Shown here piece after piece: positions 9,801 to 64,000 of a stretch of DNA of 64,000 bases. A program made the translations under genes and the position numbers. Every line of letters begins with the position of its first letter. Within the stretch, counting starts at the first letter, position 1. Location of the stretch: positions 22,932 through 86,931 of the IMG/VR virus record IMGVR_UViG_3300048861_000079. One strand, 5' to 3'. The notes below the pieces were generated by a model, which did no database searches, had not been told where the DNA came from, and worked only from the letters and a program-made list of their open reading frames with translations. The DNA comes from a virus. Its lineage: Duplodnaviria; Caudoviricetes.

Positions 9801-11512
9801 AGGGCTTCAAGACCGACCTGCCGGCGAACATTCGCGAGCTGGCAGCAAAGTATGGCCTGTCCTGGGGCGGCGACTGGAAGTCCGTCAAGGACACGATGCA
9901 CTTCGAATGGCGCGGCGGCAACGCTCCGCAGGGCAGGGTGCCGGCCGCCGACTCCGCGCCTGGCGCCGGCCAGATGCCGCAGGTTCCCGAGATCCCGCAG
10001 TATGACAGCACGGCGACCCAGGAGCGACAGAACCAGCTGCTTCAGGATCGCGTGGCGATGACCGAGAAGCTGCAGGAGGAGGGCAAGAAGCTCGCCGAGC
10101 GCGAAGCCGCGGCTGATGAGGGCATGGATGAGGTCAAGCGCAAGGAAGCGCTCGATACGATCCTGAAGAAGACCCAGGAGCTCACGACCCAGACCGACAA
10201 GCTCGGCAAGACCGAGGAGCGCTACGTCAACGCCATCACGCATGGCGAGCTCGGCCGCTCCAAGGATCCGAAGGCGAAGGAATACCAGGACATCCTGGCG
10301 GCCGCGCGCGAGCAGGACAAGATCGAAGGCCAGCTTAACGACAAGGCCAAGGCTGGCACCGAAGCCGCGCGCGACCGCAAGAAGCTCGATGAGCAGCGCG
10401 CCGAGCTGGTCAAGGAAATCGCCGAGCAGGAGAAGCTTGCCAAGAACCCGGACTACAAGCCGGAAAGCTCGCAGCTCGCCAACACCCGCAAGCAGCTCGA
10501 TGACTACGTCCAGTCGATCAAGGATTCGGAAGGCGAGGCAAGCCAGGCCTACAAGGATGCTGTCGACTATCGCTCGGCCTATCTCGCACAGACCCAGCAG
10601 CGCGATCTCCTGACGCAGCGCGCAGCGATGAACAGCAACACGCGCGACCTGCAGACGAACCTGCTTTCGCAGTCGCAGATCCGTGCTGTGTCGATGCAGC
10701 GCGAACTGGATGAGCTGAACCGCCGCGAAGCGCAGGAACTCGCCGTCACCGGCCAGACCGAAGCGCAGAAGGCCCAGATCACCGAGGACTACGAGAAGGC
10801 CAAGGCTGCGATCCGCGCCAAGTATAACGCCGAAGCCTCGCCGCTGCAGAAGCAGATGACCGAATGGCGCGATGTTCAGACGGAGCTTGCCCAGGCCTCC
10901 ACGAAGTGGATGGACTCGCTTGCCGGCGGCATCACCGACCTCATCACCGGCACCGGCGACCTGCGTTCGGCCATTCAGGGGATCCTGAAGGACATCGTGA
11001 ACATGGGCGTCAAGTATATGATGGGCTCGTTGATGCAGGGCAAGCAGGGCGGTGCAGGCCGTGCCGGCGCCAAGGCATCGAAGGGTGGTCAGTCCAAGAT
11101 TGCAGCCAGCGGCAAGTCGGCCGGCCTCTATCACACCGGCGGCATCGTCGGCATGGGCACTGGCGCGTCCAAGATCGCCTCGGCCGCTGCCTGGATGAAC
11201 GCTCCGAAGTTCCACACCGGCGGCATCGTCGGCTCGAGCCTGCTTCCGAACGAAGTGCCGATCATCGCCAAGAAGGGCGAGGGCGTCTTCACCGAAGACC
11301 AGATGAGCGCGATGGGCGGCTTCAGCCAGCAGCAGAACGTCCAGATCAATGCGCCTGTCACGGTCAACGCCTCCGGCGGCACGCCCGAGCAGAACAACGA
11401 TCTCGCCCAGAAGATGAGCAAGCAGATGGAAACGACCATGCGCTCTGTCGTCGCCGATGAGCTGCGCAAGCAGACCCGTCCGGGCAACTACCTGAACCAG
11501 AGGAGCCGCTAA
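6818..11512 (+). CDS. tape measure protein with an internal peptidase M15 domain
   Basis: 1564 aa helical; tape-measure N-domain (QMAGKSVIQMEELRQQLGE); SEHAFGNAID...WGGDW..KDTMHFE; C-terminal FHTGG motifs. Confidence 0.9.
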   Translation: MSNIRVELQLADGSFTSGMLRAGQSLNEFNQQLIRTNPRLAALAAGSGSIVTSINRADGATKGFLGTLRDVSIVTGLVSMGLSTMSGVANGFVGEIVKVNAEMERLRFMMQAMSTAKDPFADANRSVAYLRDQAKNMPFAMGTITNAFVKLKTTGMDPMNGSLTALADGISAFGGDDQAFNRVTVAITQMAGKSVIQMEELRQQLGEQMPAAFQVMARSAGVSVAELTKAISTGRVEAKPALEGFFQELERSYGGEAQRMMQTFSGQVSQLATNLQNLATNEGGRGFFDQVKAQLVDINQFLSSNAAQMFATRLGQGLSQAVGWIRTAAENVFEFRNEILNVGSAIAAAFGGLAIIRGIGSFVSAVGSLRAALVGVGAQFQVAGNAQAYYNLVTNSGAPALVRLRAAMLVTTEAAAGLTMTLTAVAPWVAAVGIAVYTAGNYFGWFTDKVKENYETLEQYGAQTRKQAADTIAARKAELEANLEVFEAQKKQQEDLAKWGVTTADSTDVEENIKKAKAALDDLNKKQEDILNQAASNEDQSELAKLDRRLQTEIGMIENNYRQQQEKAEVHYNELAKQDADAGKVAVKTEQDRKAAILAIQQERSKAILDIYQKEEDELKKRQQTALGDELTRINTLLGNVRARWLQENDNLKNLKMPAGIQFANKPINDAQNIKQGQTTLKSLTDDIAKVQAQLGGASGAAAEMWQKIKNGDYGQIEGATEETKKLHEELMAATTQKEALDKLMAGQKKAEQDLASVKEKVLAKEFELRKKMSGGDNMTDSEEFLLKLQDGFYQGLGPIDNIREAISGVTSALDLTGTTLNTIGNVTRNNTFGDQTAQKIQTVTDKLREMSGVLADISRGVSGIDMSNIGKGLPTSTAGFSGGALMGMAGFSGVPTSGANLMSKHMDIFGDPRTPGWAAQNLTDVGIDNGMKVQVNKLAADAFKGFLNELLGQGYNIKSLGGYALRDKVSGNGISEHAFGNAIDINPDQNPYGKGFKTDLPANIRELAAKYGLSWGGDWKSVKDTMHFEWRGGNAPQGRVPAADSAPGAGQMPQVPEIPQYDSTATQERQNQLLQDRVAMTEKLQEEGKKLAEREAAADEGMDEVKRKEALDTILKKTQELTTQTDKLGKTEERYVNAITHGELGRSKDPKAKEYQDILAAAREQDKIEGQLNDKAKAGTEAARDRKKLDEQRAELVKEIAEQEKLAKNPDYKPESSQLANTRKQLDDYVQSIKDSEGEASQAYKDAVDYRSAYLAQTQQRDLLTQRAAMNSNTRDLQTNLLSQSQIRAVSMQRELDELNRREAQELAVTGQTEAQKAQITEDYEKAKAAIRAKYNAEASPLQKQMTEWRDVQTELAQASTKWMDSLAGGITDLITGTGDLRSAIQGILKDIVNMGVKYMMGSLMQGKQGGAGRAGAKASKGGQSKIAASGKSAGLYHTGGIVGMGTGASKIASAAAWMNAPKFHTGGIVGSSLLPNEVPIIAKKGEGVFTEDQMSAMGGFSQQQNVQINAPVTVNASGGTPEQNNDLAQKMSKQMETTMRSVVADELRKQTRPGNYLNQRSR

Positions 11513-61433: not shown

Positions 61434-61931
61434 ATGGGCGCATCCGTTCCCGCAAACATTCTCTCCATCCCGACCAAGCGCCTGACGCCTGCGGCAAAGC
61501 TTCCGACTTACGGTTCGGCTGAAGCCGCCGGCATGGATCTCTATGTCGACCTGTCCGGTATGGTCGGCTATGACGCTGAGCAGGATCCTGCCGAAGGCGT
61601 CGTCTTCACGCTCTACGCTGGTCAGCGGGCGCTGCTGGAGACCAACATCGCAATGGAGATCCCGACGGGCTATTACGGCCAGATCAAGCCGCGCTCCGGT
61701 CTCGCCTACAAGAACGGCATTGTCGTCCTCGGCGGCGTGATCGACAGCGACTATCGCGACGGCATCGGCGTGATCCTGCTCAACTCGGGCAAGGAGAACG
61801 TCCAGTTCAAGCACAATGACCGCATCGCCCAGATGGTGCTCCTCGAGCACTACACCGGCCATCTCTTCGAAGTGGATGAGCTCGGCGACACTGTTCGCGG
61901 CACCGGCGGCTTCGGCTCGACGGGCGCCTGA
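61434..61931 (+). CDS. dut: trimeric dUTPase
   Basis: AGMDL, PRSG, GVIDSDYR, RIAQ, RGTGGFGSTG. Confidence 0.95.
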   Translation: MGASVPANILSIPTKRLTPAAKLPTYGSAEAAGMDLYVDLSGMVGYDAEQDPAEGVVFTLYAGQRALLETNIAMEIPTGYYGQIKPRSGLAYKNGIVVLGGVIDSDYRDGIGVILLNSGKENVQFKHNDRIAQMVLLEHYTGHLFEVDELGDTVRGTGGFGSTGA

Positions 61932-62551
61932 TGCTTTACGGGCTCACTGGATCTTCTGGGACTGGCAAGACCACTCTTGCCAGGACCGTCGCCGAGTCCC
62001 TATCGGCTGAGTTCGTCGCGACGTCGATCACGGCGAGCGGCAGGCGCCACGGTTATGATCCCGTGGGGCTTATGTCGCTCCAGGACCGTATCAAGCTTCA
62101 GCACCATCTCCTCGATGACCTGGTGGAGCTCATCAAGAACGCCAAGCGCCCGGCCATCATGGACCGGACGCCCATCGACCTGATCGGTTACATGTATGCG
62201 GAGATCGATATGCACTCGCATCTTCGGCTCTCGCAGGTTGATATCGCTCGGATCGAAGCCTACCGGCAGCGCTGCCTCGATGAGACGGTGCGGTGGTTTG
62301 ACCACGTTTTCGTGACGACGCCCCTGCCCGTCTACGAGACTGCGGAGACCCGGCCCGTGGCGAATGCTGCCTACCAGCAGCACTCCCAGATGATCATGGA
62401 GGCATCCATTTACTCGCTCACCGGGAGGGTGAATTTCTCCATCTTGCGGCCGCCTGGCCTCGAGACCCGCGTTGAGCACGTCCACGACACCATCGTCGCC
62501 AGGATGAACATCATCGATCGGCAGCGGCGCGGCGCAACGGGACTTCACTAA
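61931..62551 (+). CDS. P-loop nucleotide kinase (AAA_28/dNMP kinase-like)
   Basis: GSSGTGKTT, DRTPID. Confidence 0.7.
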   Translation: MLYGLTGSSGTGKTTLARTVAESLSAEFVATSITASGRRHGYDPVGLMSLQDRIKLQHHLLDDLVELIKNAKRPAIMDRTPIDLIGYMYAEIDMHSHLRLSQVDIARIEAYRQRCLDETVRWFDHVFVTTPLPVYETAETRPVANAAYQQHSQMIMEASIYSLTGRVNFSILRPPGLETRVEHVHDTIVARMNIIDRQRRGATGLH

Positions 62552-62569
62552 ATTCGCGAATGAATTTGT

Positions 62570-62595
62570 GCATCCCAAGTCAAGCGCTGCTATAA
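62570..62595 (+). promoter_or_regulatory. class-II promoter
   Basis: GCATCCC-N12-GCTATAA. Confidence 0.65.
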
Positions 62596-62602
62596 AGAAA
62601 CT

Positions 62603-62622
62603 ATAAGTAAGCACATACTGAC
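62603..62622. promoter_or_regulatory. 20-bp operator
   Basis: ATAAGTAAGCACATACTGAC. Confidence 0.65.
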
Positions 62623-62633
62623 AGCGAGGCGAC

Positions 62634-62717
62634 ATGAAGAATTGTTTCGGACACTTCATCGTCGCCTCCGCCTACCTCTTTGTCATCGCTATGTGCCTCT
62701 ACCCGTTTTCAAAGTGA
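62634..62717 (+). CDS. small hydrophobic peptide (27 aa), not in the ORF track
   Basis: MKNCFGHFIVASAYLFVIAMCLYPFSK; GAGG RBS; first ORF after a promoter. Confidence 0.45.
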   Translation: MKNCFGHFIVASAYLFVIAMCLYPFSK

Positions 62718-62724
62718 GGAAAGA

Positions 62725-63123
62725 ATGAAGACCGAGACCGCCCATCAGGAAGAGACCATCGCATCGGTGCGCGCTGATCTGCAGCTGCGCCAGGATGCCG
62801 CCGTCGAGGCCAGTCGCATTGCTTGCAAGCGCAAGCTTTTGGAAGCTCTTGTCCACGCCGGCCGTGAGGCTGAGACCCACTTTCAGGCCGCCAAGGCCCG
62901 CAAGAAGCTTCTCAAGGGCGTGCTGAACGACCTGGAGCAACTCGACGGCGAAGACGATCTCGAGATCAAGGAACTTCAGGATCTTTTGGTTAAGACGCGC
63001 GATGCGATCGACGGCACTGTTTCGACCGCTGTTCTCGCCTTCGCCGCTACGCCGGCAGAAACGCCGGCAGAAACGCCGGCAGAACCGCCGTTCGCTCTGT
63101 CGCCGGCCCGGTTCGCCGCCTAA
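62725..63123 (+). CDS. hypothetical coiled-coil protein (132 aa) with TPAE x3 repeat
   Basis: GAGGA RBS; 12-bp tandem repeat near 63049-63084. Confidence 0.65.
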   Translation: MKTETAHQEETIASVRADLQLRQDAAVEASRIACKRKLLEALVHAGREAETHFQAAKARKKLLKGVLNDLEQLDGEDDLEIKELQDLLVKTRDAIDGTVSTAVLAFAATPAETPAETPAEPPFALSPARFAA

Positions 63124-63129
63124 CACGAA

Positions 63130-64000
63130 CAGGCCGGTGCTTCGGACCCGGCCAGTGCGGCCACCGCGTCCTTCGGGTGTCAGTCGGGGTAATAGGCTCA
63201 GCGTATGCGAGCCGGCTGCGAAGCATCCAGGGGTCGCGCCCTTGGCGACGAGTGAAATCGTGACAAGCGGAGAGAGAGCCGCACAAGTTTCGCCCGAATG
63301 GGCAATGAATGACCAGTGCGTGACGTGCGGTTCGAGTCCGCGTAGAGGGTCGCACTGGTGGTAGTCGATGACGAAGCTGGTCGTCGGCCTGTGTGAAGGT
63401 AGCGCTCCTTCACACCAGTTTCGCCCGAATGGGCAGTAGTTTGAGGAAGTGGGGAGGTAGCAACCCTGCTGGTCGGATCCTTATCGCTTTGGATCCCCGC
63501 GAACAGCGGCCAGCCCTCAATTCAGGTGAAAACACGGTAGACCTCAGTCTCTACAAGACGCCGTGGGACGCAGTGGAAGCCTGCAACTTTCAGATCGGTC
63601 GTTTGAGGCGACCGTAGGGGCGGCGCCCGAAGGCCAAGGGCGCAGCCGGAGAATGAGACGGACGTAGGTAGCTCAGTTGGTAGAGCGGCTCTCGGGTAGA
63701 GAGCGCGTCGTCGGTTCGAGTCCGACCCTGGTCGAGATGGACCAGTCCGAGAATTCGCCCCGCCCCGCCTTTTGATGAAGGGTGCTCCGCATGTCTCTAC
63801 GAGTGCTTGAAGCGTAGAGGTTCCCCGCATTCCCCGTAAGACTACCCGAAAGGGGCGGTTGGGGTTACGCAAGTGCCGACAAGGACGGCTTAGGCCGTCG
63901 ACTCATAAACTCTGACACCAGATCCTTGCGGCGACGAGTTTGACAGCTGCGAGATAATTTTCCGGGCGCTTGTCGTAGCGAGTGGCGATACCTCGAAACT
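63130..64000 (+). ncRNA. large, highly structured non-coding RNA (GOLLD-like candidate), truncated by the window end
   Basis: More than 15 GC-rich hairpins, two T-loops, duplicated 19-nt module, nested long-range stems, no ORF with phage codon bias. Confidence 0.65.
63661..63733 (+). tRNA. degenerate tRNA-like element (anticodon GGT at canonical spacing)
   Basis: D arm GCTC-AGTTGGTA-GAGC and T arm GTCGG-TTCGAGT-CCGAC; G at position 33, bulged acceptor stem, no CCA. Confidence 0.55.

Follow-up and report, generated by a model that had tools for sequence, protein, structure and literature searches.

The DNA analysed here is a stretch of 64,000 nucleotides (nt), called the window below, from a virus of the Caudoviricetes (Duplodnaviria; IMG/VR record IMGVR_UViG_3300048861_000079). 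It makes up the last 64 kb of an 86,931-bp viral contig of the linear class, estimated to be 74% complete, and the window end coincides with the contig end. An earlier note on this sequence had described the gene-free region at the end as a giant ornate non-coding RNA, possibly a member of the GOLLD family. Our data indicate that this gene-free end is a row of small folded RNA modules that are genuine and conserved, two of them look-alikes of transfer RNA (tRNA). Sequence comparison shows that it is the 5' part of a non-coding RNA island of 0.75–1.35 kb found in phages and phage-plasmids of the Rhizobiaceae.

The locus and its limits

Upstream of the RNA island lie a dUTPase-like open reading frame (ORF) and an ORF for an AAA_28-type NTPase or kinase (61931–62551). 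The latter is followed by a promoter/operator-like motif, a 27-codon ORF for a hydrophobic peptide (MKNCFGHFIVASAYLFVIAMCLYPFSK; 62635–62717, plus strand) and a 132-codon ORF that ends at 63123. The RNA locus within the window covers about 63125–63890 and is truncated (Table 1). Its length is about 765 nt, not 870 nt, and the extent of more than 850 nt claimed before has to be shortened because the last 110 nt belong to an insertion sequence (IS) of the IS5 family. This segment is 88–97% identical to copies on 83 plasmids of Agrobacterium, Rhizobium, Sinorhizobium and others that are annotated as IS5 family transposase, with 97% identity to a copy on an Agrobacterium tumefaciens plasmid, and its minus-strand frame is the C-terminus of a transposase. 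In the source soil metagenome, sequencing depth rises from 13.7 to 586–830 (40- to 60-fold) from 63888–63891 onward. The IS5-family element cuts the RNA island at 63891. It accounts for the end of the contig at this place and is a sign that the host belongs to the Rhizobiaceae.

Table 1. Features at the 3' end of the window, in order of position.
Feature	Positions	Strand	Basis or remark
Promoter/operator-like motif (CTATAA ... TATAAGTAAGCAC)	62591–62620	+	repeated motif, common to related islands
UUCG-loop hairpin	63132–63154	+	just past the stop of the 132-codon ORF; without U-tract; not called an intrinsic terminator
Module A1, conserved single-stranded stretch (GGUGUCAGUCGGGGUAAUAGGC) and hairpin	63166–63218	+	matches B1VFA 136–181
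Module A2, 65-nt three-hairpin motif	63219–63286	+	22-sequence alignment, covariance model
Linker hairpin M, copy 1 (AGUUUC GCCC GAAU GGGC A)	63286–63304	+	exact repeat
Module B	63309–63418	+	RHph_N1_10 87698–87827, 77% identity
Linker hairpin M, copy 2, preceded by ...ACCA	63417–63435	+	exact repeat; 108-nt insertion of X2 right after
Module F, multi-branch, closed by UUGAGG/CCUCAA, with inner GGAUCC/GGAUCC and CCGCG/CGCGG hairpins	63436–63521	+	sequence, local fold
Module E (CAGGUG ... GGUAGACCUCAGUC ...)	63522–63595	+	homologous to L006 9831–9889
Module G, hairpins CGGUCG/CGACCG and GGCGCCC/GGGCGC	63596–63660	+	sequence, local fold
Anticodon-less tRNA look-alike	63661–63734	+	Rfam tRNA model, ARAGORN
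Spacer with short hairpin (GGUCGAGAUGGACC)	63735–63786	+	partly common to L010, downstream of tRNA-Pro
Module C, invariant core GUUACGCAAGUGCCGACAAGG, 3' side cut off	63787–63890	+	matches JP1, L010, L154, L156
IS5-family insertion sequence, end	63891–64000	-	plasmid matches, depth jump, transposase C-terminus; outside the RNA locus

The lack of coding signal reported in the earlier note agrees with our results. The spread of G+C among codon positions is at most 0.18 over 63050–63900, compared with 0.4–0.68 in the upstream genes, and the four longest ORFs of the region have no Pfam match. The stems that had been quoted are all present in the sequence: GGCCGG..UUCG..CCGGCC at 63133–63154, CCAGTGCG/CGCACTGG at 63313–63320/63351–63358 enclosing a T-loop hairpin (GGUUCGAGUCC), GTGTGAAGG/CCTTCACAC, CGGTCG/CGACCG, GCGCCC/GGGCGC, and TTGAGG/CCTCAA, whose halves are about 70 nt apart. 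The folding energy of the region is below that of shuffled sequences (z = -4.3 on the plus strand and -3.8 on the minus strand). Compensatory change in relatives is stronger evidence for structure than folding energy. Such changes were found in every module that could be assessed, and the locus is a genuine, conserved and heavily structured non-coding locus of a phage, as had been proposed.

The sequence TATAAGTAAGCA occurs three times in the window (11892, 56146 and 62602), always on the plus strand, where 0.03 copies are expected. Its extended form, CTATAA-N(4-9)-TAAGTAAGCAnTTAC, is partly palindromic, lies on the plus strand before genes, and is also found before or after the islands of three relatives (L005 474–505, L006 10470–10500, L010 1385–1415). 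Since related phages have it in common, we regard it as a probable promoter of the phage family, combined with an operator. The copy near 62602 likely starts a transcription unit that runs through the two short ORFs into the island. No sigma-70-type promoter and no intrinsic terminator were predicted in 62300–64000. The operator-controlled promoter of the earlier note is thus retained in so far as the locus lies downstream of a phage-family motif with no predicted terminator between them, while a promoter of the sigma-70 type was not predicted. A 21-nt sequence upstream of the promoter (62548–62568) has no repeat in the window; it is the palindromic TAAGTAAGCAnTTAC motif that is repeated.

A hint of transcription, though a weak one, comes from an RNA-seq library of a root metagenome, in which contigs of a relative join the upstream ORF to module A2 and module C to module D. 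One contig spans 63464–63521 (module F), and another spans 63770–63894 and continues into ...GAAUUGACGAG..., which is module D. The library is available as contigs and not as reads, and the parts of the stretch that they leave uncovered are no evidence of absence. These contigs are compatible with a common precursor.

Relatives of the island and the linker hairpin M

In a blastn comparison with cultured phages, three segments of the window matched unannotated gaps of three different phages. Positions 63176–63286 match Rhizobium phage B1VFA directly upstream of its tRNA-Cys, 63304–63435 match a 526-nt gap past the glutaredoxin gene of Rhizobium phage RHph_N1_10, and 63787–63894 match a 452-nt gap of Agrobacterium phage JP1. 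In terms of modules, B1VFA holds A1, H and A2 before its tRNA-Cys, RHph_N1_10 holds B, M and D, and JP1 holds C and D. Further island loci were obtained by pattern searches in IMG/VR and by comparison of the retrieved loci. L010 is a viral contig of 69.6 kb that comes from an isolate genome. The same two genes as in the window precede its 1.3-kb island, which holds a tRNA-Ser-like element, tRNA-Cys, M, H, tRNA-Pro, C, D and an odd tRNA; past the island lie the promoter motif and the next gene. In L006 (116 kb), the promoter motif is accompanied by A2, a tRNA-like RNA with a CCA end, M, D, E and tRNA-Cys. The plasmid unnamed3 of Shinella zoogloeoides (L157, NZ_CP132310.1, 117,457 bp) carries A2, a 126-nt tRNA-like RNA (GUCCGGC ... 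GCCGGAC-G-CCA) and tRNA-Cys. It is a circular, non-mobilizable plasmid of a clinical Shinella isolate with many short hypothetical genes, and its size and the matching island indicate that it is probably a phage-plasmid and a relative of this contig. None of the modules occurs in all compared islands, and the order of the modules differs among them.

A close relative, here called X2 after the plant metagenome run that holds it, is known from a 1,411-nt contig that covers 63137–63675 with about 90% identity or better outside two insertions. One insertion of 91 nt replaces 63277–63287, and the other, of 108 nt, lies between 63435 and 63438. Each insertion point coincides with the outer border of one M copy. 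X2 also has five pair-restoring double substitutions in all, in A1, F and E. Three other searches added no relatives or little beyond chance: a degenerate pattern of module B had no match in IMG/VR, a 14-mer of module E gave 117 matches that were mostly due to chance, and the upstream AAA-type gene, used as a protein anchor, led to no relatives.

The related islands hold several RNAs that are absent from the part left in the window. A tRNA-Cys(GCA) of 84–88 nt with a long extra arm, which is unusual for tRNA-Cys, occurs in four of them (L005 344–430, L006 9649–9735, L010 2151–2238, L157 4003–4089). Module H, of about 90 nt, is present in B1VFA and L010 (L005 182–275; L010 1915–2000, minus strand). 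Its closing 12-bp stem is wholly different between the two and yet complementary, and its conserved core is GGAGCCCUGGCC ... GGAUAUCACUGGC ... GCCAGAGGGGUAU. ARAGORN found permuted transfer-messenger RNAs (tmRNAs) of the two-piece, alphaproteobacterial type in L154 (7067–7440, minus strand) and L182 (151–465, minus strand), with the tags VNDNDESVPVLRLAA and ANDNSPLAAQALAA; the islands of these loci also hold module C–D or M.

The exact duplication of a 19-mer, AGTTTCGCCCGAATGGGCA, that had been pointed out before is confirmed. The two copies of this linker hairpin M flank module B. The 19-mer was also found in 11 IMG/VR contigs, 11 metagenome contigs and RHph_N1_10, with 19 of 19 bases invariant; these were collected by exact match, so that the stem cannot show covariation. 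M is always located 0–4 nt past the 3' side of a helix. It adjoins the CCA of tRNA-Cys in L010 and of the tRNA-like RNA in L006, where the first A of M is the terminal A of CCA, and the preceding element ends in CCA in about 6 of 14 unique viral and phage contexts. L008, L013 and L180 likewise have two copies, 74–180 nt apart. The 11 metagenome contigs found via M have only M in common with the window. M marks cassette borders and the 3' ends of tRNAs. Its positions suggest that it might be the punctuation of the array. RNase E prefers RN↓WUU (arrow, cut), and AG↓UUUC of M fits this preference. M may also provide microhomology when co-infecting phages exchange cassettes, since the 19-mers at cassette borders are identical.

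Folded modules and tRNA shapes

Module A2 consists of three hairpins, P1 to P3, and loop 1 might form a pseudoknot with P2. A search of IMG/VR with the exact 18-mer GACGAGTGAAATCGTGAC retrieved 22 viral stretches, and all of them except L032 have the helices that flank the 18-mer. An alignment of 22 A2 sequences, which includes the window, B1VFA and the Shinella plasmid, has 33 invariant columns. In P1 and P3, both sides have changed in 9 of 16 pairs, and 95.5% of the cells are paired; none of 500 shuffles and no slid register gave comparable pairing. P2 sits within the search word, and covariation is not assessable there. P3 is weakened in the window copy and likewise in L006. About 20 of the 352 helix cells are G-U pairs on the plus strand, where the opposite strand would have A-C mismatches, and this argues for an RNA read from the plus strand. 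The covariance model scores the window copy at 89.6 bits and finds a single copy in each of five near-complete genomes (110–165 kb); elsewhere it detects two weak variants and no more.

At least 21 phage contigs carry A2, once per genome (L005, L006, L017–L037 and L157 are among the carriers), and the carriers range from G+C-rich to A+T-rich. In the window, B1VFA, L006 and the Shinella phage-plasmid, A2 heads the island. In about 20 further viral contigs A2 occurs without the other modules, and most of these copies are located among tRNAs or in a short gap in front of an unrelated ORF. What lies downstream varies and can be a TerC-like gene, small hydrophobic ORFs, unrelated ORFs or tRNAs; like the 27-codon ORF upstream of the island in the window, the small ORFs that often follow A2 in other phages are hydrophobic. 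The presence of A2 in bacteria was rejected: the exact 18-mer occurs 14 times in the 185,579 species genomes of bacteria and archaea that were searched, compared with about 17 matches expected by chance, and none has the flanking helices. No Rfam family matched A2, in the window region at E up to 10 or in six A2-bearing loci at E up to 1, and the same searches gave no self-splicing intron and no small self-cleaving ribozyme. Taken alone, A2 has good support as a candidate new class of phage-specific RNA.

In L157 (3574–3699) and L006 (about 10047–10178, minus strand), tRNA-like RNAs of about 126–130 nt directly follow A2. They have a 7-bp acceptor stem (L157), a T-arm, a discriminator base and CCA, with about 100 nt between, and neither ARAGORN nor Rfam called them. 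A2 might also be a catalytic or machinery-binding RNA of a new class, such as a self-processing element or an antiterminator of the put/nut kind that carries RNA polymerase through the hairpin-dense array, with the island behind it as one functional unit of a new kind. We regard this more ambitious proposal as rather doubtful. A survey of IMG/VR has listed 10,006 candidate structured RNAs (csRNAs), which are short covarying motifs, many of them tRNA-like or located just upstream of genes (PMC10690425). A2 or M may belong to this list, in which no candidate is known to have been described as a cassette island.

The hairpins and the invariant M could instead act in DNA, as recombination sites for cassette exchange, as an origin or as a packaging signal. 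The invariance of all 19 bases of M in unrelated contigs, its position at insertion points, and the single copy of A2 per genome, which in B1VFA lies 270 nt from the deposited left end, would be in line with such a role. However, the covarying helices show G-U pairs on one strand only, the tRNA and T-loop shapes are features of RNA, M abuts CCA ends, and RNA-library contigs cover parts of the island of a relative. An element acting at the DNA level is therefore highly improbable.

Compensatory changes were also found in the other modules. In A1, X2 has two double changes, 63198 T>G/63210 A>C and 63201 G>C/63208 C>G. Module B contains, at 63309–63362, an 11-bp acceptor-like stem around the GGUUCGAGUCC hairpin together with a GG-containing internal loop, and two further hairpins at 63364–63388 and 63389–63418. 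Six of its 40 pairs are retained in RHph_N1_10 via changes on both sides. In that phage, a perfect 20-bp inverted repeat (CCUUAUGAGAGGCGCCGCUC ... GAGCGGCGCCUCUCAUAAGG; L003 2915–3000) is located directly upstream of the module B copy. Module F is supported in X2 by 63498 C>G/63508 G>C and 63500 C>U/63506 G>A. In module E, 6 of 21 pairs are compensatory in comparison with L006, and X2 adds 63541 A>G/63548 U>C. Module G is kept in X2 with indels in the loops, and no more distant homologue was found. Module C has three helices, with 7 of 17 pairs compensatory among five sequences, and continues into module D in relatives; from the spacer onward, 63759–63894 of the window is 71.5% identical to L010 1832–1704.

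As modelled, the 63309–63362 part of module B would be a mimic of the tRNA elbow. The acceptor-like stem, the T-loop and the GG loop resemble the tRNA-like domains of tmRNA and of bacterial Y RNAs (YrlA; Chen et al., RNA 2014, PMC4201824), and by this analogy the GG-containing loop could imitate the D-loop contact. Unlike these domains, module B has its T-arm on the 5' side of the stem, no CCA end and no G3-U70 pair. In the window, neither ARAGORN nor Rfam found a tmRNA or a Y RNA; the permuted tmRNAs in L154 and L182 show that ARAGORN is able to detect this type. A tmRNA tag frame noticed by eye (ANSGQPSIQVKTR, about 63499–63540) was rejected, since it is not kept in L006.

The embedded tRNA-like domain noted before was recovered by both the Rfam tRNA model and ARAGORN. 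It scores 36.3 bits with the Rfam model (RF00005; gathering score 29), over model positions 5–66 only, and ARAGORN calls it 'Thr GGT' with G instead of U at position 33. The D and T arms are intact and at canonical spacing, as in a tRNA cloverleaf. Acceptor pairs 4–6 are mismatched, GAG stands in place of CCA, and in the anticodon arm the 7-nt loop is replaced by a loop of 5 nt on a 6-bp stem. X2 has another stem in place of this arm; its two sides are likewise complementary, and a GAGA tetraloop closes it. Because this arm covaries under a GAGA loop, the shape has been kept while decoding is impossible. The element resembles tRNA-Thr genes of related contigs and derives from a gene of the tRNA-Thr type. 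The canonical tRNA-Met and tRNA-Asn of the contig are located elsewhere.

The broken acceptor stem of this tRNA-Thr-like element, its lack of CCA and of a 7-nt anticodon loop, the isolated T-arm in module B and the landing of an IS in the locus might be taken as signs of decay, the island being a functionless cluster of tRNA pseudogenes, attachment-site duplications and terminator hairpins. This reading is hardly tenable, however. Compensatory double substitutions keep the helices in every assessable module, the covarying anticodon stem of the look-alike and the tetraloop of its relative indicate selection for shape, A2 keeps about 35 invariant bases across phages of very different G+C content, and no terminator-like site was found. 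The earlier note had allowed that the region might resolve into independent tRNA remnants and terminators. The units do appear to be independent, but most of them are conserved structured RNAs under selection.

A processed array or a single large RNA

The modules are conserved, covary and are exchanged like cassettes. The reading that we prefer, with a probability of about 0.6, is that the island is a co-transcribed array of separately folding RNA cassettes that are processed into small stable RNAs. The independent modules, their variable order and the cassette-sized insertions at M support an array, and true tRNAs with CCA ends within the related islands must be excised. What we infer is the transcription unit, the cleavage sites with their enzymes and any function. 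Transcription would start from the phage-family promoter near 62602 and pass through the ORFs of 27 and 132 codons; it would reach the island because no terminator intervenes. Host RNase P and RNase Z could then recognise the tRNA-shaped elements, namely the elbow mimic of module B and the anticodon-less look-alike, and an enzyme of the RNase E type could cut in the single-stranded AG↓UUUC of M. The GCCC-GAAU-GGGC hairpin of M might cap the 5' end of the downstream piece. The products would be several RNAs of 50–130 nt, and their roles would most likely lie in translation, in tRNA-directed host takeover or in counter-defence, as in other phage tRNA islands.

The folding predictions can be read in two ways. 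With pairs that span at most 150 nt, 92% of the minimum free energy is reached, and no inter-module or long-range helix has comparative support. Several points weigh against a processed array. The unconstrained fold gains 26 kcal/mol via long-range pairs. In pair probabilities over 766 nt, 31% of the mass spans more than 150 nt with no clean domain minima, a result that does not discriminate for a G+C-rich RNA. Processing is deduced wholly from sequence, and the RNA-library contigs could stem from contaminating DNA; the contig that bridges the ORF and A2 would show a precursor at most. The stem of M is without covariation in a collection made by exact match, and M could be a site at the DNA level. 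Modules F and G are known from the window and close relatives only, without distant homologues, so that their independence is a presumption. The variable 5' half of GOLLD and the tRNAs that can occur in its linker (bioRxiv 10.1101/2024.12.08.627333) are also relevant here: since GOLLD has both, embedded tRNAs and variability leave room for one large RNA.

In that alternative, the whole island with its tRNA-shaped elbows would be one large multi-domain RNA of a new class, with a lifestyle like that of GOLLD and ROOL, and it might self-assemble. GOLLD and ROOL are large ornate RNAs with families in Rfam (Weinberg et al. 2009, 2017; Kretsch et al., bioRxiv 10.1101/2024.12.08.627333). Like the island, they are borne by phages or prophages, near tRNA islands, in long ORF-free and helix-dense stretches. 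A single large RNA would fit the unbroken structure over more than 760 nt without ORF or terminator, the location in a phage beside tRNA-like elements, as for GOLLD and ROOL (bioRxiv 10.1101/2024.12.08.627333), the variable half and linker tRNAs that GOLLD has too, and the 26 kcal/mol that long-range pairs contribute to the predicted fold. However, the homologous islands have no common core, their modules differ in order and occur alone in other phages, the close relative X2 has cassette-sized insertions at the borders of M, no large-RNA family of Rfam matches, and no long-range helix is comparatively supported. We consider a single large RNA unlikely, and the single giant RNA of the earlier note does not agree with modules that are found singly and reordered in other phages and with insertions at module borders.

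Membership of GOLLD itself was tested with cmscan, as the earlier note had suggested. The window at gathering score and the region 62500–64000 at E up to 10 gave only the tRNA-like element and neither GOLLD nor ROOL, and the L006 island also gave no GOLLD. GOLLD was rejected since its covariance model, with a conserved 3' region, multistem junctions and pseudoknots, is unmatched, and ROOL since its model of about 580 nt with multiple pseudoknots is unmatched at E up to 10. The location does resemble that of GOLLD, in a viral contig with a tRNA-like element inside the region and tRNAs in the islands of relatives. GOLLD forms a homo-oligomeric nanocage (14-mer). In contrast to GOLLD and ROOL, the island has no universally conserved core, and its modules are separate and reordered. 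Its host group is the Rhizobiaceae, whereas GOLLD and ROOL belong to Lactobacillales or to rumen and lake bacteria. On present evidence the island is not a GOLLD-like giant RNA.

Other known RNAs were considered and dropped. RNase P RNA (RF00010) was rejected, as the whole contig was unmatched at E up to 10 while this RNA was found in control genomes. Words resembling RNase P that had been seen by eye in D, E and C were also given up; when the islands were compared with an alphaproteobacterial rnpB by blastn, no match had an E value below about 1. Mimicry of host rRNA was rejected as well. Comparison by blastn with an alphaproteobacterial rrn operon gave matches of tRNAs to spacer tRNAs and one match to 16S rRNA, which involves module C of L010 (66 nt, E 0.015) and was judged to be due to chance, as it rests on the variable hairpin of that copy.

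The nearest analogue of the processed array that we favour is a tRNA cluster of a phage that also encodes small stable RNAs, such as that of T4. The tRNA cluster of T4 ends with the species 1 and species 2 RNAs (rnaC and rnaD), which are released by host processing enzymes. The island likewise has several RNA units that fold and are conserved independently, with tRNA genes or tRNA-like elements in one ORF-free stretch. Both are polycistronic non-coding arrays of phages in which tRNAs stand beside other small structured RNAs, with processing in the island being presumed. The island differs from the T4 cluster in its unrelated RNA families, in its mostly non-tRNA units, in the conserved linker hairpin and in tRNA shapes that do not decode. 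In eukaryotes, the TMERs of murine gammaherpesvirus 68 (MHV68) and the mascRNA of MALAT1 have tRNA-like processing handles that depend on Pol III or on nuclear processing. As in these RNAs, a tRNA-shaped element is fused to hairpins in the island, and cleavage by RNase P or RNase Z could release the neighbours, although there is no sequence relation.

The interest of the locus lies in the A2 motif, in the cassette architecture punctuated by a linker, and in the tRNA look-alikes without an anticodon. Phage tRNA islands are usually annotated as tRNAs and empty space. Here, the space holds at least seven RNA structures that selection has maintained and that belong to no catalogued family. The cassettes are exchanged among phages of Rhizobium, Agrobacterium and Shinella, with a common linker between them and with tRNA shapes that no longer decode. 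The carriers infect agriculturally important bacteria, and since the cultured phages JP1, RHph_N1_10 and B1VFA hold modules, these proposals are testable. If the pieces are released as small RNAs, they might provide these phages with a tool-kit against host translation, tRNA processing or tRNA-targeting defence.

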